NCBI GenBank assembly: GCA_023140195.1
Contig: JAGLME010000003.1
Coordinates: 29,180 to 53,179, forward strand
Origin: Thermoplasmata archaeon
Lineage (GTDB): Archaea; Thermoplasmatota; Thermoplasmata; RBG-16-68-12; SOIM01
Length of the DNA stretch: 24,000 nucleotides
Direction of reading: 5' to 3'
The notes under the pieces are model-generated. The model saw only the letters and a list, made by a program, of their open reading frames with translations, made no database searches and was not told where the DNA came from. Below are positions 1 to 11,897 of this stretch, piece by piece; positions within the stretch are counted from its first letter, which is position 1; each line of letters starts with the position of its first letter. Made by a program: the position numbers and the translations under genes.

Positions 1-520
1 AATCCAAGATGAAACTCACAGCCTTCGCCACAGCATCCACAATCGCAGTCGCAACATCCACGAGCCAATCCCACAGGTCCTCCAGCATCCTGAGCACTCC
101 GCCGAAGAGCCCGTCCATCTCCTTTTCGTAAGGAGGATCGAGACTGTTCCCCGCGAAGTCCTCCATCGTTATGCTCACTTCGTATGTTACGAGAACCTCC
201 GCCAATTTCAGATCAAGCGCGACCATGAACCATTCATGTCCCTTTCCCACGAAGGTCACCGTTCTGGTGTCATCCTCGCTTATGCTGACCGTGACGCTGA
301 ACTCAGATACGTCCAGGGCCTCAACTTCGATTTCCGCCCAGAGCCTCTTGAGGCAGGGAAGATAGATACCCCAACCGCCGCAGTCTCCCCACCTTTCGTG
401 CTTCGTTATGGCGATGTTGAGAACGATCGGTGGGGTGCTCTCTCTTATGAACGGGTTGAACTGGCTGTCCATCATTGTCTGGTTGTCGCCGTATATCCGC
501 ACGAAATCCTCGATCGACAT
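1..520 (-). CDS. hypothetical protein, N-terminal part only (ORF runs off the left window edge)
   Basis: My own minus-strand read has no stop from 634 down to 1 (about 210 codons). The first ATG is at 520-518 (MSIEDFVRIYGDNQTMMDSQFNPFIRESTPP...). An in-frame TTG at 580-578 lies about 24 nt downstream of a TATA-like box and could be a leaderless start. It is not in the supplied track because it is open-ended. GC-rich codon usage resembles the neighbouring genes. No family recognised. Confidence 0.45.
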   Translation of the reverse strand, partial: MSIEDFVRIYGDNQTMMDSQFNPFIRESTPPIVLNIAITKHERWGDCGGWGIYLPCLKRLWAEIEVEALDVSEFSVTVSISEDDTRTVTFVGKGHEWFMVALDLKLAEVLVTYEVSITMEDFAGNSLDPPYEKEMDGLFGGVLRMLEDLWDWLVDVATAIVDAVAKAVSFILD

Positions 521-603
521 CGTGGTGGAATTGACGGGATCGTGGTGCTGAAGAGCCAGTTCCAATAATCGTTGTATCAAATCTGATAACGGTCTCGGCA
601 CGC

Positions 604-611
604 TTTTTATA
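604..611 (-). promoter_or_regulatory. TATA-box-like element (TATAAAAA on the minus strand) upstream of the left-edge ORF
   Basis: Plus strand reads tttttata at 604-611, so the minus strand reads CATATAAAAAGCG. It sits in the only AT-rich stretch upstream of the open minus-strand ORF. Confidence 0.35.
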
Positions 612-800
612 TGAGAAACATACGCCGACTCACATCATAAATCACGATGTCCCCTCCTCTGAGGAAGGGTAGTAACCCGCGATTTTGCGGGTGTGGGCTC
701 TCGGGCCTTGCTACCGACTTCCTCACCCCCCTTTTTTTCCCGTTCCCATCTCATCGGGCGGGCACGCTGATGATTAAGAAGATCTCGAAAAGAATGTTCC

Positions 801-938
801 CTACTCCTCCTCTTTGTTCTTCCGTTGGCTTGGAAGGACTATGATGTTGAGTGGAATGATCTGTCCGCTGTCGTCATCATCCTTGGGGTAGATGACGCTC
901 TTGCCCTCTGGTGCTATTTTGTGGAATCGCAGTTTCAT
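801..938 (-). CDS. small hypothetical protein (45 aa)
   Basis: Hand-translated: ATG at 938, TAG at 803-801, MKLRFHKIAPEGKSVIYPKDDDDSGQIIPLNIIVLPSQRKNKEEE. It is below the ORF-track length cutoff. A TTTTAAGTA box lies about 30-37 nt upstream on the minus strand and a T-rich run follows the stop. No family recognised. Confidence 0.3.
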   Translation of the reverse strand: MKLRFHKIAPEGKSVIYPKDDDDSGQIIPLNIIVLPSQRKNKEEE

Positions 939-1099
939 CGTATCTGTAGTTCATACCACCCTAGGATACTTAAAACGGAAGCAACGGATTATCGTGGCTG
1001 ATTATCTTTTGCACAACTGGTAATACCGACCAGATGCGGTTTGCACCGCTCAACATTCAACTAAACCAGAACAAATCCGCGAAGGTCCAGGATGGCCGT

Positions 1100-1447
1100 T
1101 CAATCTATCAGGAGCTCAAGTCCGGTCCAATCCCCACCGAAGTCCTTGACGGCGCCGGTGGCGAGATGGAACCTCGCTCTGAGTTTCCCGTTCTCAAAGA
1201 AGATGAAGGCGGTCTTCAACCTCGAGAGGTAAAGGTTCTTCCTCTTGCCTTTCGGCGTGAGAACCCTGTCCACACATTCTATCAGTCCAACGTCCTCTAA
1301 GGTCTTGATCTTCCTGTAGCATGCCGCGATTGGTATGCCGTACGTGTTGCTTATCTCCTGGGCGCTCATCTTCTTCTTGAAGGTCGCCAGAAGAATCTTC
1401 GCAGAATACTCGTCTGTCAGCATTTGAGAGGCTTCAAGGGCGTCCAT
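1100..1447 (-). CDS. winged-helix (ArsR-like) transcriptional regulator, paralog of 4929-5273
   Basis: This is track ORF 1100-1474, but codon 1 there is TTG. The first ATG is at 1447 (MDALEASQMLTDEYSAKILL...). The HTH core SAQEISNTYGIPIAACYRKIKTLEDVGLIEC plus the wing KGKRKNLY are shared almost motif-for-motif with the 4929-5273 protein. Confidence 0.7.
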   Translation of the reverse strand: MDALEASQMLTDEYSAKILLATFKKKMSAQEISNTYGIPIAACYRKIKTLEDVGLIECVDRVLTPKGKRKNLYLSRLKTAFIFFENGKLRARFHLATGAVKDFGGDWTGLELLID

Positions 1448-1615
1448 ATTTATTCCCCTACCCACTGTCCACAACCTTTGCTATTGGTGAGTAAACCCAG
1501 CGTAAAGTGTTCAGATACTTAAAGTATGCCCTATCAGTTTTCTGTTAAGATAAGAGACATTTTTTTTCACGGTCATCAATCACTTGGTGACTGGTTAGGG
1601 ATTCGTCTCTGACCA

Positions 1616-1667
1616 CGGGGGTCGACCGAGAGTTCTCGTAACTTTCATGGTGTGTCAACGACCCCCG
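1616..1667. repeat. perfect 9-bp inverted repeat (CGGGGGTCG ... CGACCCCCG) enclosing a 34-nt loop with a nested CGAG/CTCG hairpin
   Basis: Read directly: 1616-1624 is CGGGGGTCG and 1659-1667 is CGACCCCCG. It lies in the intergenic gap between the regulator and the HNH gene. Confidence 0.5.
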
Positions 1668-1730
1668 AAATCTCTAAAAGGAGGGAGATGATATTTCCAC
1701 ACCATAATCAAGAGTGAGAGACTAGTAACC

Positions 1731-2135
1731 ATGGCTCACAAATGGTACAAGTTGAGTCAAAAGGCATTCGAGAGGGACAACTACACGTGCCGAAACTGTG
1801 GACAGAAATCGAAAACTCGGACTGAGCGTCACTTCTCAAGAGTATACTCTTACATATCACCACCCCTAGTAGCACATCATATCGTAAGAGATGATGATTA
1901 CTGCAATACGCCACTATCCAATCTAAAGACCTTGTGCCAGCCATGTCACAACAAGTACAAAAGAGACGATTCATTGTTCTACAGAAACCAGAGGAAATGG
2001 AAAGCACCTCAGTGGATTGACATAACGAAACCAGCAGAACGACCACCAGAAGAATGGGAATGTCTCAAATGTGGCAGTATGTTTGATTTATCTCTGAGGA
2101 CAACCTGTCCCAAATGCAGAGCCTTTTTCAGGTGA
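1731..2135 (+). CDS. HNH endonuclease with C-terminal zinc ribbon
   Basis: 134 aa, ATG start. The HNH pattern is CRNCG ... AHHIV ... NLKTLCQPCHNKY (CxxC, HH, N, CxxCH). It is followed by CLKCG ... CPKCR. Confidence 0.8.
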   Translation: MAHKWYKLSQKAFERDNYTCRNCGQKSKTRTERHFSRVYSYISPPLVAHHIVRDDDYCNTPLSNLKTLCQPCHNKYKRDDSLFYRNQRKWKAPQWIDITKPAERPPEEWECLKCGSMFDLSLRTTCPKCRAFFR

Positions 2136-2299
2136 GAAAACTCCAAAAGATTCATTACAGATGAATTACAGAGATACGACTGACACAGCATGAAAGAATG
2201 TGGAATAGTGAATAGACTGCCGAGGGTTTTCGACCCGCCAATCCTACCCTGTCTCGTTGATAGGGTGGAGAATATGCTTAGATGCATCAAGTCTGTGGA

Positions 2300-3420
2300 A
2301 TTCTTCCCGAGGTTCAAAATCGAGCGCTTCCCCGATTGCCCTTGAACTACGTGGGAGTCTTTATCTCACTTCGGGTCTTGTGATAAGTAGACCAATCTAT
2401 CAAATTAGACCATCCGTCGTTAAATGGCAACTTGATTCCAGCAATCCTCGCAGGTGTGGTCTTGAGCGTCTGATGTGGTCGAATGAAATTGTAATTCAAC
2501 GAGAAACCGTCCAGTAGTTGCCTAGGGTTCATGAACGCCCGCATCACCTTCGTTCGCTCCTTGAGGGTGTTGTGGAAGCGCTCAATCCTGTTGTTATTGC
2601 TGGGCATCGCCTTCGATATGCCCGCCTTCTGAATGAAGTTGATTTTGTCGTGAACGGTTCTCCCACCGAGAGCCATCTTCAATCCACCGTAGTAAGTCGG
2701 TAGTCCATCACAGATTACGGTTTCTGGAATCTCTTTGGAAGTCTCATAAGCATCCTTGAACACCGCCTTGGCATCTTTCTTTGTTCTTGTCTTTGACAGG
2801 TGAGTACCAAGAATCATTCGGGTATCTCTGTCCATCACTTCCCAGTACCACCACCCCTCGCCTTTGACCCTCACATAAGTTTCGTCAACATGCCAAATCC
2901 CGCCGAGAGTAGGAGTCAGCGACTGAACGAACTCCTTTACGAGGGGAGAGTACTTTTGGATCCAATTCCACACCGTGACTTGGCTGACCTTCACCTTGAA
3001 CAACTTCAGCAGATGCTTGGCAACCTTCCTCAGGCTCAGACCGTCATAGTAAACCTCCAAGGCGAACGCAATCGCTTCCTTCGGAACCCTCATCCTCGTA
3101 TGGTTGTCAGGATTCACGAACTTGTGTCCGCATGACTTGCACAAGAATCTCTGCTTTCCGTTCTGCTTTCCATGCTTCACAAGCTTGTCGGAATTGCAGA
3201 ACTTGCATCCTCCATTATCACTCAGGATTTCCCCGACGAAAGGGTTATTAGCACCGAAGTCGTTGACCTTTCTTGAGGTTGATAGCACAATATCAATCTC
3301 CATGAAACAGGGGTGTTCAACCACCCGCTGTTTCTCAATACTGGCAATGGGTTTCGAGCATATAAGCAGTGTCTGGAGGGGTCGGTGAAAATCGGGTTTT
3401 GAAACGAAAAAAGGCTTCCA
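2300..3420 (-). mobile_element. IS element (IS6-like); ends not resolved
   Basis: A single DDE transposase ORF nearly fills the interval. I found only weak terminal-repeat candidates by eye: TTCAAAA and CCCGATT words near 2312-2337 and, inverted, near 3387-3405. The boundaries are therefore approximate. Confidence 0.45.
2347..3324 (-). CDS. DDE transposase, IS6-family-like, with N-terminal zinc finger
   Basis: 325 aa. The zinc finger is CKFCNSDKLVKHGKQNGKQRFLCKSCGHKF. The DDE triad context is WHVDETYVRVKG, VICDGLPTY and NNNRIERFHNTLKERTK, followed by YNFIRPHQTL. Codon 1 at 3324 is GTG; an ATG at 3303 is an alternative start. Confidence 0.85.
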   Translation of the reverse strand: MVEHPCFMEIDIVLSTSRKVNDFGANNPFVGEILSDNGGCKFCNSDKLVKHGKQNGKQRFLCKSCGHKFVNPDNHTRMRVPKEAIAFALEVYYDGLSLRKVAKHLLKLFKVKVSQVTVWNWIQKYSPLVKEFVQSLTPTLGGIWHVDETYVRVKGEGWWYWEVMDRDTRMILGTHLSKTRTKKDAKAVFKDAYETSKEIPETVICDGLPTYYGGLKMALGGRTVHDKINFIQKAGISKAMPSNNNRIERFHNTLKERTKVMRAFMNPRQLLDGFSLNYNFIRPHQTLKTTPARIAGIKLPFNDGWSNLIDWSTYHKTRSEIKTPT

Positions 3421-3526
3421 TTTTCCACTCAGACGCTCTGTAGTCGAATCTGACGCACTTTCACTTTCATTCGAAGGAAAGGCATTTAAAGATAGTTGCT
3501 CATATCCTAATTGTAATCACCTTGGG

Positions 3527-3614
3527 TGCCCCCATGCGGACTTGAACCGCAATCTCCTCCTAGGTCTACCATGTGTGTCATGGGGAGGCGGTCTTCCGTT
3601 TAACCTATGGGGGC
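3527..3614 (-). tRNA. tRNA gene with a 16-nt insertion in the anticodon loop (probable intron); isotype unresolved
   Basis: Minus-strand read: GCCCCCA TA GGTT AAACGGAA GACC G CCTCC [CCATGACACACATGGTAGACCTA] GGAGG AGAT TGCGG TTCAAGT CCGCA TGGGGGC A. It has a perfect 7-bp acceptor stem, a G18G19 D-loop and a canonical T-arm. The anticodon stem is 5 bp but encloses 23 nt instead of 7. CCA is not encoded. A TTAAAAAG box lies about 30 nt upstream. Confidence 0.7.
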
Positions 3615-3637
3615 GTGTCCCTCTTTTTCTGTTCTTT

Positions 3638-3862
3638 TTAAGGCAGTTTTGTGCCACATTCCTTACACTTATCCTTATCAATACCATTCCCTGCACCACA
3701 ATATGAACACATTACCCAATGGCTGTCGACGAATTTATTCCAATCCTTAACATCCTCAACTAGACCAGATACCAAGTCACCAAAGGACAAAGCATATCTT
3801 CGTGTGAGCCTCTGCAAGATTCGATATTCCTTTTCGAATATCCTGATGGGGTATGTGGGCAT
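3638..3862 (-). CDS. small putative DNA-binding protein with C-terminal zinc ribbon
   Basis: 74 aa, ATG start. The N-terminus (IRIFEKEYRILQRLTRRYALSFGDLV) looks ribbon-helix-helix-like. The C-terminus is CSYCG ... CKECG. It is divergent from the 4087 gene. Confidence 0.55.
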   Translation of the reverse strand: MPTYPIRIFEKEYRILQRLTRRYALSFGDLVSGLVEDVKDWNKFVDSHWVMCSYCGAGNGIDKDKCKECGTKLP

Positions 3863-3975
3863 TCATTTCACCTTCTCTGCTACAGTGTTACTGGAGGAAT
3901 CCAGTAACTTTGTAACACAGATACTGCCACTGGATAAAAAGAACCCGTTTCATGTGCAATGGATATATCTGTAGC

Positions 3976-4035
3976 GGAACAGATATGTTCTGGGCGAAAC
4001 AAATACGTTCTGCCCGAAACGTATACATTACACAG
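3976..4035. repeat. three tandem imperfect 20-bp repeats in a divergent intergenic region
   Basis: Copy 1 (3976-3995) is ggaacagatatgttctgggc. Copy 2 (3996-4015) is gaaacaaatacgttctgccc. Copy 3 (4016-4035) is gaaacgtatacattacacag and is degenerate. Copy 1 contains the palindrome GAACA-GATA-TGTTC. Confidence 0.55.
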
Positions 4036-4086
4036 AACAAGGAACATCACAGAGAACTACTTATCCACTCGATTATTCCTCAATTG

Positions 4087-4341
4087 ATGAGTCATACGAT
4101 ACATGATGACATAATCATCATAATCAGGACTCTCCAAGAATCACCTGATTTGACCATTAGAGGACTTCAGATTAAGATGAAACGGCTGAGAAAGACCTTG
4201 ATATACAGAGATAGGCTGTTGGATCTCTGCGAAGTTCTCGAAATGCTGAACATACTGGAAGTTGATGAGAAGCCAAACATGACCTATCTCAAACTGACCG
4301 AATATGGAGAGGAAGTATCTAGAGAACTGGGCTCGAAATGA
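4087..4341 (+). CDS. small winged-helix protein (84 aa)
   Basis: This is the C-terminal part of track ORF 3952-4341. I start at the internal ATG 4087 (MSHTIHDDIIIIIRTLQESPDLTIRGLQIKMKRLRKTLIYRDRLLDLCEVLEMLNILEVDEKPNMTYLKLTEYGEEV). The upstream 45 codons overlap the repeat array and look non-coding. The helix-turn-helix plus wing pattern is similar to MarR/PadR-size proteins. Confidence 0.5.
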   Translation: MSHTIHDDIIIIIRTLQESPDLTIRGLQIKMKRLRKTLIYRDRLLDLCEVLEMLNILEVDEKPNMTYLKLTEYGEEVSRELGSK

Positions 4342-4487
4342 CTTCTCACGAAAACCTTTTTATCAGTCCTTGCGGATTCTGGTTCGGAACTGCATTACCT
4401 AGAGCGGGAAAGTCGGGGAGATAGTCTCTACTCGTTCTTTCTAGGCGATGTAGTTCCAGCTGTCTCTTCGATTCTAAAGTCGAAGAG

Positions 4488-4814
4488 ATGAGACGGAGTG
4501 ATGAAATGAAAGGAACTGAGTACGAAGACTACCGAATGGAGAAGAGCAAGTACATCGGGTCGACAATTTTCTATATTGGAGCCATTCTTCTGTGTATGGG
4601 GTTAGCTTTTTCCTACATCCTATCCTATGACATCGATACATCATACGGTCAAGAACTTGGGTATGTTTGGGTGCCCACAGCAACGGACTTGTCCAAGATA
4701 CTTGTCATTGTTGGAACGGCAATGGTCTTCATCGGCGGAGTCTGGGCTATTGATGTTGGGTGGTACATCAACAAGAAACGTGCGGAAGAGTTTTGGGCAA
4801 CGCATAAGAAATAG
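4488..4814 (+). CDS. small membrane protein, two predicted TM helices
   Basis: 108 aa, ATG start. The hydrophobic spans are IGSTIFYIGAILLCMGLAFSYIL and ILVIVGTAMVFIGGVWAIDVGWYI, followed by a basic tail KKRAEEFWATHKK. No family recognised. Confidence 0.5.
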   Translation: MRRSDEMKGTEYEDYRMEKSKYIGSTIFYIGAILLCMGLAFSYILSYDIDTSYGQELGYVWVPTATDLSKILVIVGTAMVFIGGVWAIDVGWYINKKRAEEFWATHKK

Positions 4815-4928
4815 CTGAGTATTCAAAATCAAAACATATCCTAACTCTCATGTCTCTTTACTTAACAAAGTACCCTATCAGAATCAGGTCGATTCCCGGT
4901 CATGACAACCGGTCGGAAAAACCGTCTC

Positions 4929-5273
4929 TCAGTGGCTGATTGGAGTGTTCAGCTTGATCCAGGTGTTGTTGATCGGCTCCTGGGTTTTGAATTCCAACTT
5001 CACCTTGAAGACCCCATCCTCGTACATGATGCAGGCCTTCAGCAGATGTGAGCGGTACAGCTTCATGCTCTTGCCCTTGCGGGTTGTCACGATCTTCTGA
5101 CACTTGAGGAGGCCCGCGTCCTCCAGTTCGTGTATCTTGCGGTAGCACGCTGCTATGGGCACGTCGTATGTATCGCTGATCTCTTGAGCAGATCTTGCTG
5201 AGAAATATGTTGCTGCAAGAATACGTTCTGCGTAATCGTCAGTAAGTAGCCTCGAGATCTCTTTTTCTCGCAT
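4929..5273 (-). CDS. winged-helix (ArsR-like) transcriptional regulator, paralog of 1100-1447
   Basis: 114 aa, ATG start. SAQEISDTYDVPIAACYRKIHELEDAGLLKC and KGKSMKLY align with the 1100-1447 protein at roughly half of the positions. Confidence 0.75.
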   Translation of the reverse strand: MREKEISRLLTDDYAERILAATYFSARSAQEISDTYDVPIAACYRKIHELEDAGLLKCQKIVTTRKGKSMKLYRSHLLKACIMYEDGVFKVKLEFKTQEPINNTWIKLNTPISH

Positions 5274-5294
5274 CGTAGGTCTTACCTCTTGGGG

Positions 5295-5302
5295 ATATTA
5301 AA
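5295..5302 (-). promoter_or_regulatory. TATA box (TTTAATAT on minus strand) positioned for a leaderless transcript of the 5273 regulator
   Basis: Plus strand reads atattaaa at 5295-5302. Its 3' edge on the minus strand is 21 nt upstream of the ATG, which fits archaeal leaderless geometry. Confidence 0.45.
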
Positions 5303-5350
5303 CCACTTTCATCCGATTATCATGGATGATATCTGCACAGGCGTGTGGGC

Positions 5351-7090
5351 CTACACAATCGGGGTCAGATTCGTCTTCGGATATCCCTTCGAAACATCGA
5401 AGGACAGAGCGAAGAGCTCGGTGAACGGCTTCTCCCCGTAGAGCACTACCGAGCCGTCAATGTTCTCTATCTTCAGGTGAGTGTGAGCGACGTTGGCCAA
5501 CTTGCCAATGGACTCGTCCGTCGGCACCAGAATTCCCACAAAGATGTCCTTGTCCCTTCTGATCGACGTCAGGTGTGCTGTGAGGCCTTCTATCAGTTCC
5601 CCACCGCCGTACATGGATTCCAAGGTGTCAAATGAGAGGATTGACAAGTATGGATGTTTCGAATCCTGCAGGCTGAACTCTATCTTCTTCCATTTCAGAT
5701 CCTCAGCGACATCTCCTCCGTCCAGCGCGATCGCGTTCTCAGCGCCTACGAAGGTCTCCAGTTGCAGCGCCTCGAAGACCCTGACGTACTTGTTGTACAC
5801 TTCCTCTCCCAGGTATGGTGATATCTGACCTGCCACGATCTCCGCAGGAGCCCTCTTGGATGGCAAGAATGCCACTCCCCGGCTCTGAGCGGCGAAGTTG
5901 GATATGATCCCGGCTTTGATATTGTCGATGTAGTAGCTGGGGACGTTTCCGCCCACCTCTATCGCAATTATGGATCCCTTCTTCACCCCTCCTATGAGCT
6001 GATCCAGCTCCTCGTTCCCGGTTGAGACGACATCCTCTGAGACATCCTGGACCACCTTCCAAGGCTTGATCTCCTGTGGCATCTCTTCCTGGCCGAACGC
6101 GAAGGTCCTCACCCGTCCGTCCTTCAGAGTGTAAATGTACTTGTGCTGGGTGATCTCGGACCCTCTCAGTTTCTCAATGTTCAGGACCCTCAACCTTCGT
6201 CCCTTGTGCTCCGCCTTGGCGAAGGAGATCACACCATCTCCCAGATAGTCAAGCTTGTTGTCCATGCCGGTCTCCAGGATGTAGAGAACATCCGCCTGTG
6301 ATTGCTCCACCAGATCCTTCTGGAGGGTGTTGATGAGCTTGGATGAGTGAACACCATATCTCTCGCTTAGAGCGTCAATGCTGTCGATTAGGACCAGTGT
6401 CTTGTCCGGAAGGGTCTGCTCGACCATGTCGTATGCCAGATCTATCTCCGGGAGATCCGATCCAAGGTCGAAGATTATTGTGTCCTCGAGGAATGAACCT
6501 TCCCCAAGACCGCCGAAGTCCTCGTCCATGCCTTCCTCTCCCATCTCGATCCTCCCTTCCAGTTTTTGCAGCTCTTGGCGGTTCACTTTCTGACCGCCCA
6601 AGGATGTACCTTCCAGGGACCGAAGCAACTGCTGGGCCGTTCTGATCCTCACTTCCAGGGCCACATCAGTGTCCTTCTCCTGATGAACGTAGTTCGAGGT
6701 GAGCGTCTTTGCGTAGCTCTTGGCCATCTTCAGTTTCTCTTTCTCCGCCAGCTTCTTCCTCAGCCATGGGAATTGGTTGTACAGCGATTCGTCTGAGACC
6801 CTCACTGAGATGTAATGGCTCTTGGTTATGTTGTCCAGCTCCTCGGCTAGCTGCAACGCAAAAGTGGTCTTTCCTGTACCTGCCAGCCCTTTGACGATCA
6901 ACGAATGACCGCCGGGGCCTTTGAAGAAGTTCACGAGTTCTGTTGGTATTCCCGCTGATCCTGTCAATTTCCCACCTCGGGAGGTCGAGATTGACGTCGG
7001 TATAAGATACTTTGGCCCTCTATTATCAGTTCTGATATCGATGTTCGGAAGGGCGTAGATGACCGTCCCGTCTTGGATCGCGCAAGTCAC
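5351..7090 (-). CDS. tandem RecA-superfamily (KaiC/RadA-like) ATPase: active N-terminal domain, degenerate C-terminal domain
   Basis: 579 aa, GTG start 10 nt after the UDG stop. Walker A is GLAGTGKTT (nt 6863-6889) and the Walker-B-like strand is TLVLIDSID. The second domain (LIGGVKKGSIIAIEVGGNVPS) lacks the GKT lysine. Confidence 0.85.
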   Translation of the reverse strand: MTCAIQDGTVIYALPNIDIRTDNRGPKYLIPTSISTSRGGKLTGSAGIPTELVNFFKGPGGHSLIVKGLAGTGKTTFALQLAEELDNITKSHYISVRVSDESLYNQFPWLRKKLAEKEKLKMAKSYAKTLTSNYVHQEKDTDVALEVRIRTAQQLLRSLEGTSLGGQKVNRQELQKLEGRIEMGEEGMDEDFGGLGEGSFLEDTIIFDLGSDLPEIDLAYDMVEQTLPDKTLVLIDSIDALSERYGVHSSKLINTLQKDLVEQSQADVLYILETGMDNKLDYLGDGVISFAKAEHKGRRLRVLNIEKLRGSEITQHKYIYTLKDGRVRTFAFGQEEMPQEIKPWKVVQDVSEDVVSTGNEELDQLIGGVKKGSIIAIEVGGNVPSYYIDNIKAGIISNFAAQSRGVAFLPSKRAPAEIVAGQISPYLGEEVYNKYVRVFEALQLETFVGAENAIALDGGDVAEDLKWKKIEFSLQDSKHPYLSILSFDTLESMYGGGELIEGLTAHLTSIRRDKDIFVGILVPTDESIGKLANVAHTHLKIENIDGSVVLYGEKPFTELFALSFDVSKGYPKTNLTPIV

Positions 7091-7100
7091 GCTAGATATT

Positions 7101-7667
7101 CTATTTGGAGGCTAGACGCTCGGCCCTCTTAAGGTCCGTGACTATCTCCTTCTGCAAGCCACGATTGTAGATGATGGCAGCCGGATGGTACGTCACCACT
7201 ATCGGCACCCCATTGTGATCCAGTTTCTTCCCCCTCAGTTCTGCTATCTTCTGCATGGCGCCGATAAGGCCTTTGGCGCCAAATCTTCCGAGAGCGACCA
7301 GGACCTTCGGGGATATTGTGCTGATCTGGCTCTCCAGGTGGGGTGTGCATGCTTCGATCTCGTCGGTCTTCGGATTCCTGTTCTTTGGCGGTCTGCACTT
7401 CAATACGCTGGTGATGAAGACCTGTTCCCTATTCAGACCTGCTGCTTCCAGTGCCTCGTCCAGGATCCTCCCAGCATACCCAACGAACGGCCTGCCTAGC
7501 TCGTCCTCTGATTTTCCCGGAGCCTCCCCGATGAGTATTATCTTAGCGTTGGATGCCCCCTCACCAGGTACCGCGTGGGTCCTGCTTTTCGCCAGATGAC
7601 ATCTCCTGCACCGTCTGACCCTTGTTGCGATCTTCCTGAGTTCGTCCTTCTTGGCCAAGGCATTCAC
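7101..7667 (-). CDS. udg: uracil-DNA glycosylase, family 4 (Fe-S type)
   Basis: 188 aa. The motifs are CRRCHL, GEAPGKSED and PFVGYAGRILD, plus the later Cys residues (LKCRPP, EACTPHL). GTG start, 3 nt after the PolX stop. Confidence 0.9.
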   Translation of the reverse strand: MNALAKKDELRKIATRVRRCRRCHLAKSRTHAVPGEGASNAKIILIGEAPGKSEDELGRPFVGYAGRILDEALEAAGLNREQVFITSVLKCRPPKNRNPKTDEIEACTPHLESQISTISPKVLVALGRFGAKGLIGAMQKIAELRGKKLDHNGVPIVVTYHPAAIIYNRGLQKEIVTDLKRAERLASK

Positions 7668-7670
7668 CCT

Positions 7671-9413
7671 CTACCTGAGATATGTTTTGAGCTCTTCAGC
7701 GGTCATCGTGTTGAGAACGTCCTCCTTCTCCAGCCATCCGCGTCTCGCCGTTCCCACCCCGAATTTGATGAATTGCAGATCATGGATGCTGTGGGTATCC
7801 GTGCCCAATGATATCTTCGCCCCAGCCTCCTTTGCCATTCTAGCGTGCGGCCCGTTGAGGTCCAGTCTGTCCGGGAAGCAGTTGATCTCAAGTGCCGTCC
7901 TGGTTTCGGCCGCCTCATCCATTATCTCTTCGATGTCCAGTTCGTAAGGGTCCCTCCTGCCTATGAGACGTCCGGTCGGATGCGCGAGTATGTCCATGTT
8001 CTCGTTCCTCATCGCCTCCACCATCCTCTCGGTCATCTGCCTTTCCGGCATCGAGAATTTGGAATGGACTGCTCCCACAACCACATCCAATTCCTTTAGG
8101 ATCGAGTCATCCAGGTCGAGCTCTCCATTGTCCTTGATGTCCGCTTCGATGCCTGTGAGGATCTTGAAGTCCCTCATCTTCCTGTCGACCTTCTTCACCT
8201 CCTTGATCTGCAGTTCAAGCTCTTCCTCGGAAAGTCCGTTCGCAATCTTGAGAGACTTGGAATGATCTGTGATCGCGATGTATTCTCTTCCCTGGGCCTT
8301 GGCGGCCTCCGCGATACCTTGGATGCTCTTCCCTCCGTCGCTCCAGTCCGTGTGAACATGCAGATCCCCTTTGACGTCCTCAAGTTCGATCAGGTCCGGG
8401 AGCTTTCCGTCCAGCGAAGCCTCTATCTCTCCAGCATCCTCTCTTAGTTCGGGTGCAATGTAAGACATTCCCAGCAGTTCGTAGATCTCTTCTTCCCCCT
8501 TCCCACCTATCTTCTCATCACCTTCAAAGACCCCGTATTCGTTGATCTTCAGCCCCATTCTCTGAGCGATCGACCTGAGATGTATGTTGTGGTCCTTGGA
8601 GCCGGTGAAGTACTGCAGTGCGGCGCCGAAGCTTCCTGACTCGACCACCCTCAGGTCCGCTTGGAGGTCACCTTCCAGGTAAACAGTGGTCTTGGTCTTT
8701 CCCTTGAGGGCCACATCCTCAACATGTGGCAGGTTCGAGAATGCGTCCATTACGACCTCGGGATTCCCCGAGACCGCCAGTATGTCAATGTCTCCCACGG
8801 TTTCCTTCATCCTTCTCAGCGATCCGGCCACACTTATCTTCTCCACCTTGGATCTGAGGCTCTCCACCACTTCCTCAGCGATTGGCAGGGCCTCTCCGAG
8901 CAGCATCCTTCCCTTTGTCCGCTTGAGCATCTCTATGCCTTTCAGAATGTTCTTCTCGGTCTTCTCCCCGAAGCCCCTTAACCGTCTTATCCTCCTCTCT
9001 CTCGCCGCCTTCTCGAGCTCATCCAGGCTTGATATCCCCCTCTCCCTGTAAAGAAGTCCTGCCTTCTTGGGCCCCATTCCGGGAACCGCCAGGATATCGA
9101 GCACTCCCTGAGGAATCTCCGTTCTCAACCTCTCGTGAAGTGGAATCTTGCCTAAGTCCAGGTACTCCCCGATCTTCTTAGCGATGTTCTTGCCGATGCC
9201 CTGCAACCCAGTCAGTTCCCCCCTCTTCCTGATCTTCTCCAGGTCCTCTGGAAGTTCCTCTATCACCCTTGCCGCCCATCGATACGCTCTCGGCGTGAAC
9301 TGCTCGTTCTTGATGTCCAGCATGTCAGCGATCTCGTAGAGGATCCTCGCGATCTCCTGGTTCTTCACGGATTGAGAATTCTGGATTGGCGATAAATAGT
9401 TTCTCTCACTCAC
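7671..9413 (-). CDS. polX: family X DNA polymerase with C-terminal PHP domain
   Basis: 580 aa. The HhH motifs are GIGKNIAKKI and VPGMGPKKA. The nucleotidyltransferase motif is GSLRRMKETVGDIDIL. The PHP motifs are GDLHVHTDWSDG and ITDHS. Codon 1 at 9413 is GTG; the in-frame GTG at 9368 (VKNQEIARILYEIADML) is an equally plausible start. Confidence 0.9.
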   Translation of the reverse strand: MSERNYLSPIQNSQSVKNQEIARILYEIADMLDIKNEQFTPRAYRWAARVIEELPEDLEKIRKRGELTGLQGIGKNIAKKIGEYLDLGKIPLHERLRTEIPQGVLDILAVPGMGPKKAGLLYRERGISSLDELEKAARERRIRRLRGFGEKTEKNILKGIEMLKRTKGRMLLGEALPIAEEVVESLRSKVEKISVAGSLRRMKETVGDIDILAVSGNPEVVMDAFSNLPHVEDVALKGKTKTTVYLEGDLQADLRVVESGSFGAALQYFTGSKDHNIHLRSIAQRMGLKINEYGVFEGDEKIGGKGEEEIYELLGMSYIAPELREDAGEIEASLDGKLPDLIELEDVKGDLHVHTDWSDGGKSIQGIAEAAKAQGREYIAITDHSKSLKIANGLSEEELELQIKEVKKVDRKMRDFKILTGIEADIKDNGELDLDDSILKELDVVVGAVHSKFSMPERQMTERMVEAMRNENMDILAHPTGRLIGRRDPYELDIEEIMDEAAETRTALEINCFPDRLDLNGPHARMAKEAGAKISLGTDTHSIHDLQFIKFGVGTARRGWLEKEDVLNTMTAEELKTYLR

Positions 9414-9451
9414 CCAGAACCCTTTTTATGTCCCTCTTTGATTATGCCCTG

Positions 9452-10276
9452 ATGAAGCTGATCGTCGTCTCAAGGAACGACACCGCCAGTCTGAACATCT
9501 CCAAGAATCTCTTGAACTTGAGGGAATGGGAGGACGCAGGAGAGTTCTCTGGCAATCCCCTTCGCAAGAGTGGGGACTTCTTGATGGCAACGATCAATGA
9601 CGAACACCTCTCCCATGACGGTCTTGACCGAGAGCTCCAGGAATCGACAGACATTGAACCAGAGGTCATGATATTCGCGTCAAGACACAAGAGCGCTTCC
9701 GGGCTTAGGAGCTTCACCGTTCACACGCCGGGCAACTTCTCCAAGGCAGAGATGGGAGGCAGGAGCGGGGAACTGGTGCCTTCCAGCCCCCACTACAAGA
9801 CGAACGCCCTGAGGAATCTGAAGGAACTCGCCAAGAACATGGACCACACCGTCTCATACGAGGCCACACACCACGGACCCTACCTTGAGACACCGGCATT
9901 CTACATCGAGATCGGAAGCGACGAGACCTGCTGGGTGGAAGAGGAAGCCGGACGTGTAATCGCGGAGGCGATTCTCTCCATTGATCAGGAGAAGGACCCT
10001 GTTGCAATTGGGATCGGAGGCGGACATTATGCGCCTCGGCATACCGACGTCGCTCTCAAGAACCGTCTGTGCTTCGGGCACATCATTGCCAATTACGCAC
10101 TTGAATCGATAACTGAAGAGATGTTGGCCAAGGCGATCGACAGGACCCCGGATGCAGAATATGTGTATTTCCACAGGAAGGCGATGAAGAAACCGCAATA
10201 TCGGGAACTCAAGGCTTGGTTCGAGGATCACGGTCTTCAGGCGGTGAGCCAGAAGGACATCCCGAGCAGACTCTGA
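9452..10276 (+). CDS. dtdA: D-aminoacyl-tRNA deacylase, archaeal type
   Basis: I start at ATG 9452 (MKLIVVSRNDTASLNISKNLL), which matches the usual N-terminus of this family; the track ORF begins at 9386. It also has the SRHKS and EATHHGP motifs. 274 aa. Confidence 0.85.
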   Translation: MKLIVVSRNDTASLNISKNLLNLREWEDAGEFSGNPLRKSGDFLMATINDEHLSHDGLDRELQESTDIEPEVMIFASRHKSASGLRSFTVHTPGNFSKAEMGGRSGELVPSSPHYKTNALRNLKELAKNMDHTVSYEATHHGPYLETPAFYIEIGSDETCWVEEEAGRVIAEAILSIDQEKDPVAIGIGGGHYAPRHTDVALKNRLCFGHIIANYALESITEEMLAKAIDRTPDAEYVYFHRKAMKKPQYRELKAWFEDHGLQAVSQKDIPSRL

Positions 10277-11066: not shown

Positions 11067-11897
11067 ATGGAGATGCGCATGACCACAGGTTTCGATATTA
11101 TTGGCAACAATAAGGCACTGCAGGACCATTGGCTCAGGCGAATAGTCGCTCTCATCATTGATGGGATAATAATCGGTGTAATTGCCTTCTTGGTCAGCAT
11201 CGTTTTCTGGATTCTCTCCCCCATAGGATTCATCGGATGGTTCTTCTCGGGACTTCTGATGTTTCTGTACTTCATCGCCTTCGAAATGATGATGGGCGGG
11301 ACTCCAGGAAAGAAGCTCTTGAGCTTGGAAGTAGTGTCGACCCAAGAGGGAGAGCTGAGCTTCGTGTCCTCCCTCATGAGGAACATATCCAAGATATTCT
11401 GGGTATTCCTGCTGATAGACTGGATCGTCGGAATGTTCACGGACGGCGATCCCCGACAGAAGATGTTGGACAGATATGCTAATACCACGGTTCAGAGAAC
11501 CGACCAGCGGGCCTACATGGAACAGCAGTTCAGACAGATGGCCTATGTGCCACCCCATCCCACATACCAACCACCACCGGGGCAACCCCAGCAGCAGTCA
11601 TACCAGCCCTCACAGCAGACCCAGCAGCAGCCGCAGGGACAAGCGGGCGCATGGCCACACCAAGAGGAGAAGCCGAAGACCGACTGGCCCCAGCATGACC
11701 CCGGTCAGGCACCGCCACAGCAGCAGCCACAAGCACAACAACAACCCCAGCAGCAGTCTTACCAGCCTCCGCCACAACAGCAAGCAAGCCAACCACCTCA
11801 ACAGGACGCACCGAGGTTCTGCCAGAATTGTGGAACCACACTCACACCTGGAGCTGACGGAAGACCAACTTGCGGGAATTGCGGGAAGACGTACTAG
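11067..11897 (+). CDS. RDD-family membrane protein with Pro/Gln-rich linker and C-terminal zinc ribbon
   Basis: 276 aa. The RDD signature is WLRRIVALIIDGIIIG, with three hydrophobic spans. A P/Q tract of about 90 aa follows, then CQNCG...CGNCG. Confidence 0.8.
   Translation: MEMRMTTGFDIIGNNKALQDHWLRRIVALIIDGIIIGVIAFLVSIVFWILSPIGFIGWFFSGLLMFLYFIAFEMMMGGTPGKKLLSLEVVSTQEGELSFVSSLMRNISKIFWVFLLIDWIVGMFTDGDPRQKMLDRYANTTVQRTDQRAYMEQQFRQMAYVPPHPTYQPPPGQPQQQSYQPSQQTQQQPQGQAGAWPHQEEKPKTDWPQHDPGQAPPQQQPQAQQQPQQQSYQPPPQQQASQPPQQDAPRFCQNCGTTLTPGADGRPTCGNCGKTY

Follow-up and report, generated by a model that had tools for sequence, protein, structure and literature searches.

Casposons carry terminal inverted repeats, are flanked by a target duplication and include HNH and helix-turn-helix genes among their cargo. 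Mobile insertion cassettes (MICs), such as MIC231 of Bacillus cereus (Chen et al. 1999; De Palmenaer et al. 2004), consist of two terminal inverted repeats and at least one passenger coding sequence (CDS), and lack a cognate transposase gene; they measure 0.7-3 kb, have a short target duplication and are moved in trans (summarised in PMC6199540). Insertion sequences (ISs) of the IS6 family end in short, almost perfect inverted repeats, which have a GG tip, cTGTt at positions 5-9 and a caaa motif, and they make an 8-bp duplication; no member described to date is longer than about 1.76 kb, and seven described members measure 1,230-1,460 bp (PMC7986276). Here we describe a 3,335-bp insertion with inverted-repeat ends in the genome of an uncultured Thermoplasmata-type archaeon (GCA_023140195.1, hereafter G000). 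The window, the whole stretch of DNA that was analysed, comprises 24,000 nt of contig JAGLME010000003.1 (C44), and all positions without a contig name refer to it.

The assembly of G000 holds 2.98 Mb on 120 contigs, has a guanine-plus-cytosine (GC) content of 51.5% and is 95% complete. The samples behind contigs identical to that of the window came from a South China Sea cold seep (PMC9357000, Site-F study). An original prediction, made from the sequence alone, had described positions 1475-4928 as a lower-GC accessory patch with mobile-element genes, bracketed by two paralogous regulators, and had interpreted it as a decayed plasmid or provirus or a small defence/addiction islet beside a tRNA. 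We found it to be an ordinary mobile-element insertion, a known type of element with an unusual RNA passenger.

The insertion lies in the spacer of a conserved regulator pair

In order to find the empty site, window positions 1-9500 were compared with 30 relatives. In two genomes of the same genus (G003:C78 and G002:C39), positions 533-1537 and ~4860-9500 were matched at 95-96% identity by blocks that abut each other. At both empty sites, position 1537 is joined to ~4873 across a single copy of CCCTATCAG. The G002 junction reads ...AAAGTGTACCCTATCAGAATCAGG..., and that of G003 is a variant with one mismatch in the 9-mer copy. In G000, ...CCCTATCAG is followed by TTTTCTGTTAAG... and, about 3.3 kb further on, ...CTTAACAAAGTA is followed by CCCTATCAGAATCAGG.... 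Read against the empty sites, these junctions demonstrate that 1538-4872 is a discrete, lineage-specific insertion flanked by a 9-bp target duplication, which can alternatively be read as 8 bp (CCTATCAG). The predicted patch was therefore an insertion, with limits that had to be corrected, and the block is not conserved in synteny.

The element inserted into a spacer of roughly 120 bp between regL and regR, two winged helix-turn-helix (wHTH) genes that form a conserved tandem pair. Genomes from six of the seven families in the order have these genes at a distance of 150-260 nt, and in the family of G000 they are adjacent in those same-genus relatives in which one contig spans the locus. Judging from this gene order, regL and regR are an old tandem pair that was split by the insert, bystanders outside the element. 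The paralogous pair had been recognised correctly (same strand, about 50% identical), but its bracketing of the patch is explained by the split and is no feature of the element.

The composition of the block also differs from that of its surroundings. The predicted interval 1475-4928 has 45.0% GC, which corresponds to the 1.4th percentile among genome windows of 3.45 kb, so the claimed difference from the genome average was upheld; the insert itself has 44.9%. A 500-nt profile gave 51-54% to the left, 41-45% between ~1500 and 4750, and 51-56% to the right (by part: insert without its nested IS, 43.0%; IS, 47.9%; flanks, 51-53.5%). By tetranucleotide distance, the insert belongs to the most atypical 7.5% of genome windows and, without the IS, to the top 3.8%, while the right flank is typical. 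Absence from congeners and atypical composition both bear out the view of foreign accessory DNA with mobile-element genes.

The ends are inverted repeats, and one solo end exists elsewhere in the genome

The insertion is bounded by imperfect terminal inverted repeats of ~23 bp with the end motif TGTTMAGWWAAGAGACAT. Their 18-nt core is 89% complementary and lies at most 5 nt from both junctions; when the repeats are extended to the tips, 18 of 23 positions match. We searched G000 with a degenerate 19-mer of the end (up to two mismatches) and obtained three matches: both ends and C110:4038. Neither the same pattern in 78 further genomes of the order nor the reversed-pattern control gave any match. 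The C110 copy is a solo end of ~50 nt; it begins, with TTTTCTGTT, at the very point at which similarity to a multi-copy repeat unit, also present in the sister-genus genome G004, stops. A second inverted pair of these ends was not found in the G000 assembly.

Scans with Pfam, PHROGs and NCBIfam detected no replication, capsid or integrase family in the element; the absence of an integrase had been stated correctly. Inverted repeats at both ends, together with the short duplicated target, point to a small cassette that transposed rather than to a decayed plasmid or provirus.

At the spot of the solo end, G004 holds a different sequence of ~950 nt (C54, ~1760-2690) with an open reading frame (ORF) of 114 amino acids (aa); to the eye, the C-terminal part of this ORF resembles a helix-turn-helix, and the sequence may be a further small insertion there. 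On C110 itself, short sequences of 40-150 nt (3790-4038, 5437-5522, 6211-6303 and 11372-11435) recur many times, at 85-97% identity, in G000 and in other genomes of its genus and family. These sequences resemble repeats of the miniature inverted-repeat transposable element (MITE) type or other dispersed repeats.

An IS6-family insertion sequence is nested in the element

The only transposase of the block belongs to a separate module. It scored 143.8 bits with the NCBIfam IS6 model NF033587 (cut-off 125), matched Pfam DDE_Tnp_IS240 (E 4e-19) and is ~31% identical to ISCpe7-type IS6 transposases; the D, D and E residues and the following K/R are visible in its sequence. Upstream of the transposase start, positions 3370-3467 share 72-80% DNA identity with two copies in G004, whereas translated similarity over the transposase is only ~47-49%. 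All three sequences diverge from one another at 3466, which, judged by this alignment, is the end of the IS. The module is flanked by TTCATTAC (2151-2158) and TTCATTCG (3466-3473), an 8-bp repeat with six of eight bases identical. Its ends read AGATGAATTAC... and AGTGAAAGTGC... and are poorly inverted, with only a sub-terminal match of 17-18 nt. At the left end, the G004 copies could not be aligned and showed no clear inverted repeats. We read 2159-3465 as an IS6-family IS with its own 8-bp duplication, nested between the HNH gene and the tRNA-like gene, its left end being inferred. An apparent transposase frameshift in one assembly turned out to be a scaffold gap of Ns.

A tRNA-like gene is carried as cargo

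Between the nested IS and the gene for a 74-aa protein lies a tRNA-like gene, which begins 23 nt past the stop codon of the adjacent gene. It scored 49.1 bits with the Rfam tRNA model (gathering score 29), and its acceptor, D and T arms are normal. A 5-bp anticodon stem surrounds 23 nt in place of the 7-nt loop. ARAGORN missed the gene with default settings and called it His(atg) with a 16-nt intron when introns were allowed (-i). Full enumeration of contiguous excisions of 8-23 nt never yielded a U33. The best outcomes were CCAUGAA and CCAUGAC, and the canonical cut gives CCAUGAA, that is, C33 and an anticodon starting with A. In comparisons of the splicing motif by hand, the host tRNA-Asn and tRNA-Val have the canonical 4-bp helix followed by a 3-nt bulge, whereas the tRNA-like RNA has a helix (CCAU/AUGG) followed by an 8-nt bulge, which we regard as a lead only.

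The gene shows no similarity to host tRNAs beyond the acceptor stem, and no partial copy of it occurs elsewhere in G000. It is mobile cargo, neither an integration target nor a decayed host tRNA, and what had been taken for a tRNA with an islet beside it has to be read differently. A search for attachment (att) sites derived from it had been suggested; the target is the regulator spacer instead. A hybrid att-site tRNA was rejected, as no host tRNA has a half in common with the gene.

In the whole G000 assembly, ARAGORN with introns called 59 tRNA-like genes, several with implausibly long introns and none with a CAT anticodon (Met, initiator or Ile2). The tRNA set of this assembly calls for an archaeal-specific caller.

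Relatives of the element are rare

The only close relative of the element is a 498-bp metagenome contig (L031, GCA_044343285.1) with 87% mean column identity. The contig carries a 74-aa gene whose product is 73% identical, as well as the palindrome and the repeat array, which is longer by one 20-nt unit; of the tRNA-like gene it has the initial 13 nt, in which the acceptor strand differs at two sites (5' strand positions 3 and 7). Between the two, the non-coding control region is more conserved than the protein. We also scanned IMG/VR, JGI metagenomes and GTDB genomes with a conserved 24-mer and protein patterns and found no relative of the element in them. Among 5.8 billion clusters, the 84-aa and HNH proteins had no detectable relatives and matched only themselves, and none of the cargo proteins has a paralogue in G000. 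A search with the 74-aa protein returned the protein itself and its counterpart on L031. A full HMMER scan of 1.84 billion representatives retrieved no more than about six relatives of full length for it, none of them named and each on a short contig, and a class-wide search found one full-length homologue, 37% identical, in the genome G202. As far as these searches reach, the 74-aa family is tiny and the element very rare. These near-orphan cargo proteins may represent new small regulators of mobile elements in archaea.

The G202 homologue is encoded in a low-GC islet between metabolic genes (C18, ~2020-4390; 30-44% GC versus ~50-55% in the flanks), together with a ribbon-helix-helix (RHH)-like ORF of 54 aa and an AbrB-like ORF of 53 aa. 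The other genes of the islet differ from those of the element, and ARAGORN -i found no tRNA in it.

Other cargo and neighbouring genes

The features of the locus are listed in Table 1. All parts named in the original prediction are present: the HNH gene, the IS6-like transposase, the unusual tRNA, the 20-bp repeats, the wHTH protein and the two-transmembrane (2-TM) protein. The seventh, a small RHH/zinc-ribbon protein, was confirmed in part. Its zinc ribbon has four invariant cysteines and is the only part matched in PDB profile searches; a strand-helix-helix N-terminus was predicted at low confidence (AF2 pLDDT 49.6), so an RHH fold is suspected and not confirmed.

Table 1. Features of the insertion and its flanks (window positions)
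Feature	Position	Strand	Basis or remarks
regL, left flanking wHTH regulator	1100..1447	-	Pfam HTH_20 E 3.6e-7; beside regR in relatives across the order; host gene
Left target-site duplication	1529..1537	.	CCCTATCAG; one copy in empty sites of G002 and G003 (one mismatch in G003)
Left terminal inverted repeat	1538..1560	+	TTTTCTGTTAAGATAAGAGACAT; inverted pair I2; junction fixed by empty sites
Structured non-coding leader, 170 nt, upstream of HNH gene	1561..1730	+	Folding versus shuffles
HNH endonuclease, C-terminal zinc ribbon, 134 aa	1731..2135	+	PHROG, Pfam, PDB 5h0m, staphylococcal phage HNH
Nested IS6-family IS, ~1,307 bp	2159..3465	-	Right end: three-way divergence with two G004 copies; left end inferred
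IS6-family DDE transposase, N-terminal zinc finger, 318-325 aa	2347..3324	-	NCBIfam transpos_IS6, Pfam DDE_Tnp_IS240
tRNA-like gene	3527..3614	-	23 nt replace the 7-nt anticodon loop; Rfam tRNA 49.1 bits
74-aa protein, C-terminal 4-Cys zinc ribbon	3638..3862	-	Pfam Zn_ribbon_3 under cut-off; invariant C52, C55, C66, C69 in small family
Palindrome, 22-nt arms	3874..3921	.	Inverted pair I1; divergent control region; nearly identical in contig L031
20-bp tandem repeats, 2.3 copies, candidate operators	3974..4020	.	TRF score 59; one more 20-nt unit in L031
84-aa winged-helix protein, predicted DNA-binding	4087..4341	+	AF2 pLDDT 83.4; Foldseek
Two hairpins before 2-TM gene	4381..4489	+	Second over first ATG of the 4488-4814 ORF
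2-TM membrane protein, 102-108 aa	4488..4814	+	ORF; two hydrophobic spans in sequence
Right terminal inverted repeat	4850..4872	-	Reverse complement = TACTTTGTTAAGTAAAGAGACAT; inverted pair I2, empty sites
Right target-site duplication	4873..4881	.	CCCTATCAG; junction reading
regR, right flanking wHTH regulator	4929..5273	-	Pfam HTH_20; ~50% identical to regL; host gene

The HNH protein only just exceeded the Pfam HNH cut-off (22.8 versus 21.4 bits), stayed under that of HNH_5, and matched PHROG HNH families (E ~1e-11). Its best solved relative is PDB 5h0m (E 1.5e-3), and it is 27-29% identical to the products of staphylococcal phage HNH genes. Its leader is predicted to fold with a minimum free energy of -62.1 kcal/mol (z-score -4.3; none of 200 shuffles was as stable). 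The 74-aa and 84-aa genes diverge from a control region of 224 nt that contains the palindrome and the 20-bp repeats. For the model of the 84-aa protein, Foldseek gave as best matches AF1382, MarR and PadR proteins, STIV F93 (TM 0.82) and the pNOB8 centromere-binding protein AspA. Region 4342-4490 has a folding z-score of -4.5, and neither the leader nor the hairpins before the 2-TM gene belong to an Rfam family. No family was found for the 2-TM protein in Pfam, PHROGs or NCBIfam.

The predicted defence function found no support. PADLOC returned no defence-system match: the HNH domain showed a generic, weak similarity to ZorE (E 1e-4), the 2TM hit was not significant, and the defence islet was rejected.

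The non-coding stretch 4407-4487 is 82% identical to positions 226-307 of contig C372 in G028, a genome of another family of the order. The match includes a 12-bp hairpin over the start codon, and each copy lies just upstream of a small membrane-protein gene. Possible explanations for this stretch are a cis-regulatory RNA common to both genomes and a mobile promoter cassette.

As for the flanking regulators, the content of their spacer differs between genera. In a sister genus it is occupied by one extra gene for a membrane protein of 274-324 aa with a zinc ribbon (G004:C25 3746-4570; G005:C1 4262-5236). This protein is conserved and multi-pass, has a C-terminal double CxxC zinc ribbon and is encoded on the opposite strand. 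A second tandem pair of regL/regR paralogues, 65% and 38% identical to regL, lies ~9 kb upstream of the window (G000:C44:20182-20907). The insertion is located directly beside an A/T-rich, TATA-like box (window 1520-1537; TTTAAGTA, minus strand), ~90 nt upstream of the regL start codon, and has separated regL from the upstream regR. Because of this position, expression of regL may have been altered.

Origin of the insertion

In the explanation that we favour, at about an even chance, a 2.0-kb cassette without a transposase and bounded by inverted repeats was moved in trans like a mobile insertion cassette and was later hit by an IS. The original element (2,020 bp once the nested IS is subtracted) would have had the ~23-bp imperfect repeats and no transposase fitting them. 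A DDE-type transposase supplied in trans would have inserted it, duplicating 9 bp of the target; the duplication itself is observed. Later, the IS6-family IS (~2159-3465) would have landed between the HNH and tRNA-like genes and made its own duplication. The passenger genes comprise four CDS and one RNA gene, and the only transposase sits in the nested module. With two genes for small DNA-binding proteins that diverge from a palindrome and repeats, the cargo resembles a virus- or plasmid-type control module. The 74-aa and 84-aa regulators would probably bind these sites and thereby set the expression of the membrane protein and of the tRNA-like RNA.

Several points weigh against this explanation. 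The left end of the nested IS is weakly defined, being placed near 2159 by the sub-terminal inverted match. Only one insertion site is known, as identical copies occupy the same locus in five assemblies from one cold-seep study, so that mobility rests on one event and the solo end. An autonomous partner with matching ends was found neither in the 95%-complete assembly nor in the 78 relatives; the cassette differs from MICs in that no partner IS with related ends was found, only the single solo end on C110. IS copies are often left unassembled. Furthermore, the direct repeat could be longer (AAAGTA..CCCTATCAG, 15-17 nt with a 2-nt indel), which would suit an att core, and the inverted repeats are equally readable as core-type recombinase sites.

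The last two points would fit the remnant of a site-specifically integrated virus or plasmid, mobilisable in cis, whose genes for integrase and for replication or structure have since been lost or operate in trans. The cargo would agree with such an origin: a winged-helix protein near STIV F93 and AspA, a phage-type HNH protein and a divergent, operator-like region, together with the distant zinc-ribbon homologue in another low-GC islet (G202). However, the element has no integrase, it did not insert into a tRNA gene, and the genome has no partial tRNA copy that could be an att site. The inverted repeats are 18-23 nt long, terminal and transposon-like, and with only 2.0 kb left outside the IS, one would have to assume an internal deletion that left both ends precisely intact. 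We regard an integration remnant as unlikely. Less probable still is that the whole 3.3 kb is one IS6-family transposon, whose internal transposase acts on the outer repeats with passengers on both sides. Such a transposon would account for the family of the block's only transposase, for a duplication readable as the 8 bp of IS6 and for CTGTT (left) and TTGTT (right) at positions 5-9 from the outer tips, the place of the cTGTt motif (PMC7986276). Yet the outer tips are TT and TA instead of GG, the caaa motif is absent, and the length exceeds the ~1.76 kb of described members. The transposase module also has its own end at 3466, common to the two G004 copies, and is itself flanked by an apparent, imperfect 8-bp repeat.

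We consider it very unlikely that the cassette is a self-contained element in which the HNH protein, the leader RNA and the tRNA-like RNA serve its mobility or act on host translation or tRNA processing; the extended anticodon arm of the tRNA-like RNA has a perfectly paired 5-bp helix where the splicing motif would be. An intact HNH gene with a structured leader at one end recalls homing, in which the nuclease would cleave the allele that lacks the cassette and repair would then copy the cassette into it. But homing makes no target duplications and needs no terminal inverted repeats, and the nearest HNH relatives are packaging-associated nickases of phages, which makes homing highly improbable. 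That the block is ancestral and was precisely deleted in the relatives is a formal possibility with a negligible chance. Adjacency of the regulators in six of seven families, the deviant composition and exactly one repeat copy at the empty sites stand against it, and we consider it effectively refuted.

Comparison with known systems

Like casposons, the element has terminal inverted repeats, a target duplication and HNH and helix-turn-helix genes in its cargo; unlike them, it has no Cas1 or PolB. A Cas1 search (PF01867) gave no match in G000, while the same search found Cas1 in seven of 14 control genomes. The casposon reading was rejected, as Cas1 is lacking. Direct repeats at the ends, accessory cargo and the absence of a recombinase gene are shared with the att-flanked, integrase-less, cis-mobilisable remnants as they are outlined in PMC5704250. 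Compared with that outline, our element differs in its long inverted-repeat ends, in the absence of a tRNA or other usual att target and in its very small size.

The nested module resembles members of the IS6/IS26 family with an N-terminal zinc finger (ISCpe7-type; PMC7986276, PMC6807381) in passing the NCBIfam IS6 model and in its length of 1.3 kb, which falls within the 1,230-1,460-bp class; its imperfect 8-bp flanking repeat may be a further likeness. It differs from them in its poorly inverted ends, which lack the GG tip and the cTGTt and caaa motifs, and in being only ~31% identical to the bacterial members.

The closest likeness of the cassette itself is to MICs: it has terminal inverted repeats, passenger CDS, a short target duplication and no transposase for its ends, and its 2.0 kb before the arrival of the IS lies inside the range of 0.7-3 kb. 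A limited check of the literature found no description of cargo-carrying cassettes of this type for archaea. The differences from MICs are the archaeal host, ends unrelated to IS231, and a cargo of small regulators, an HNH nuclease and a tRNA-like gene. With these features, the locus is a clean example, resolved to the base, of an inverted-repeat element with cargo but without a transposase for its ends, in an uncultured Thermoplasmata-type archaeon of a cold seep.

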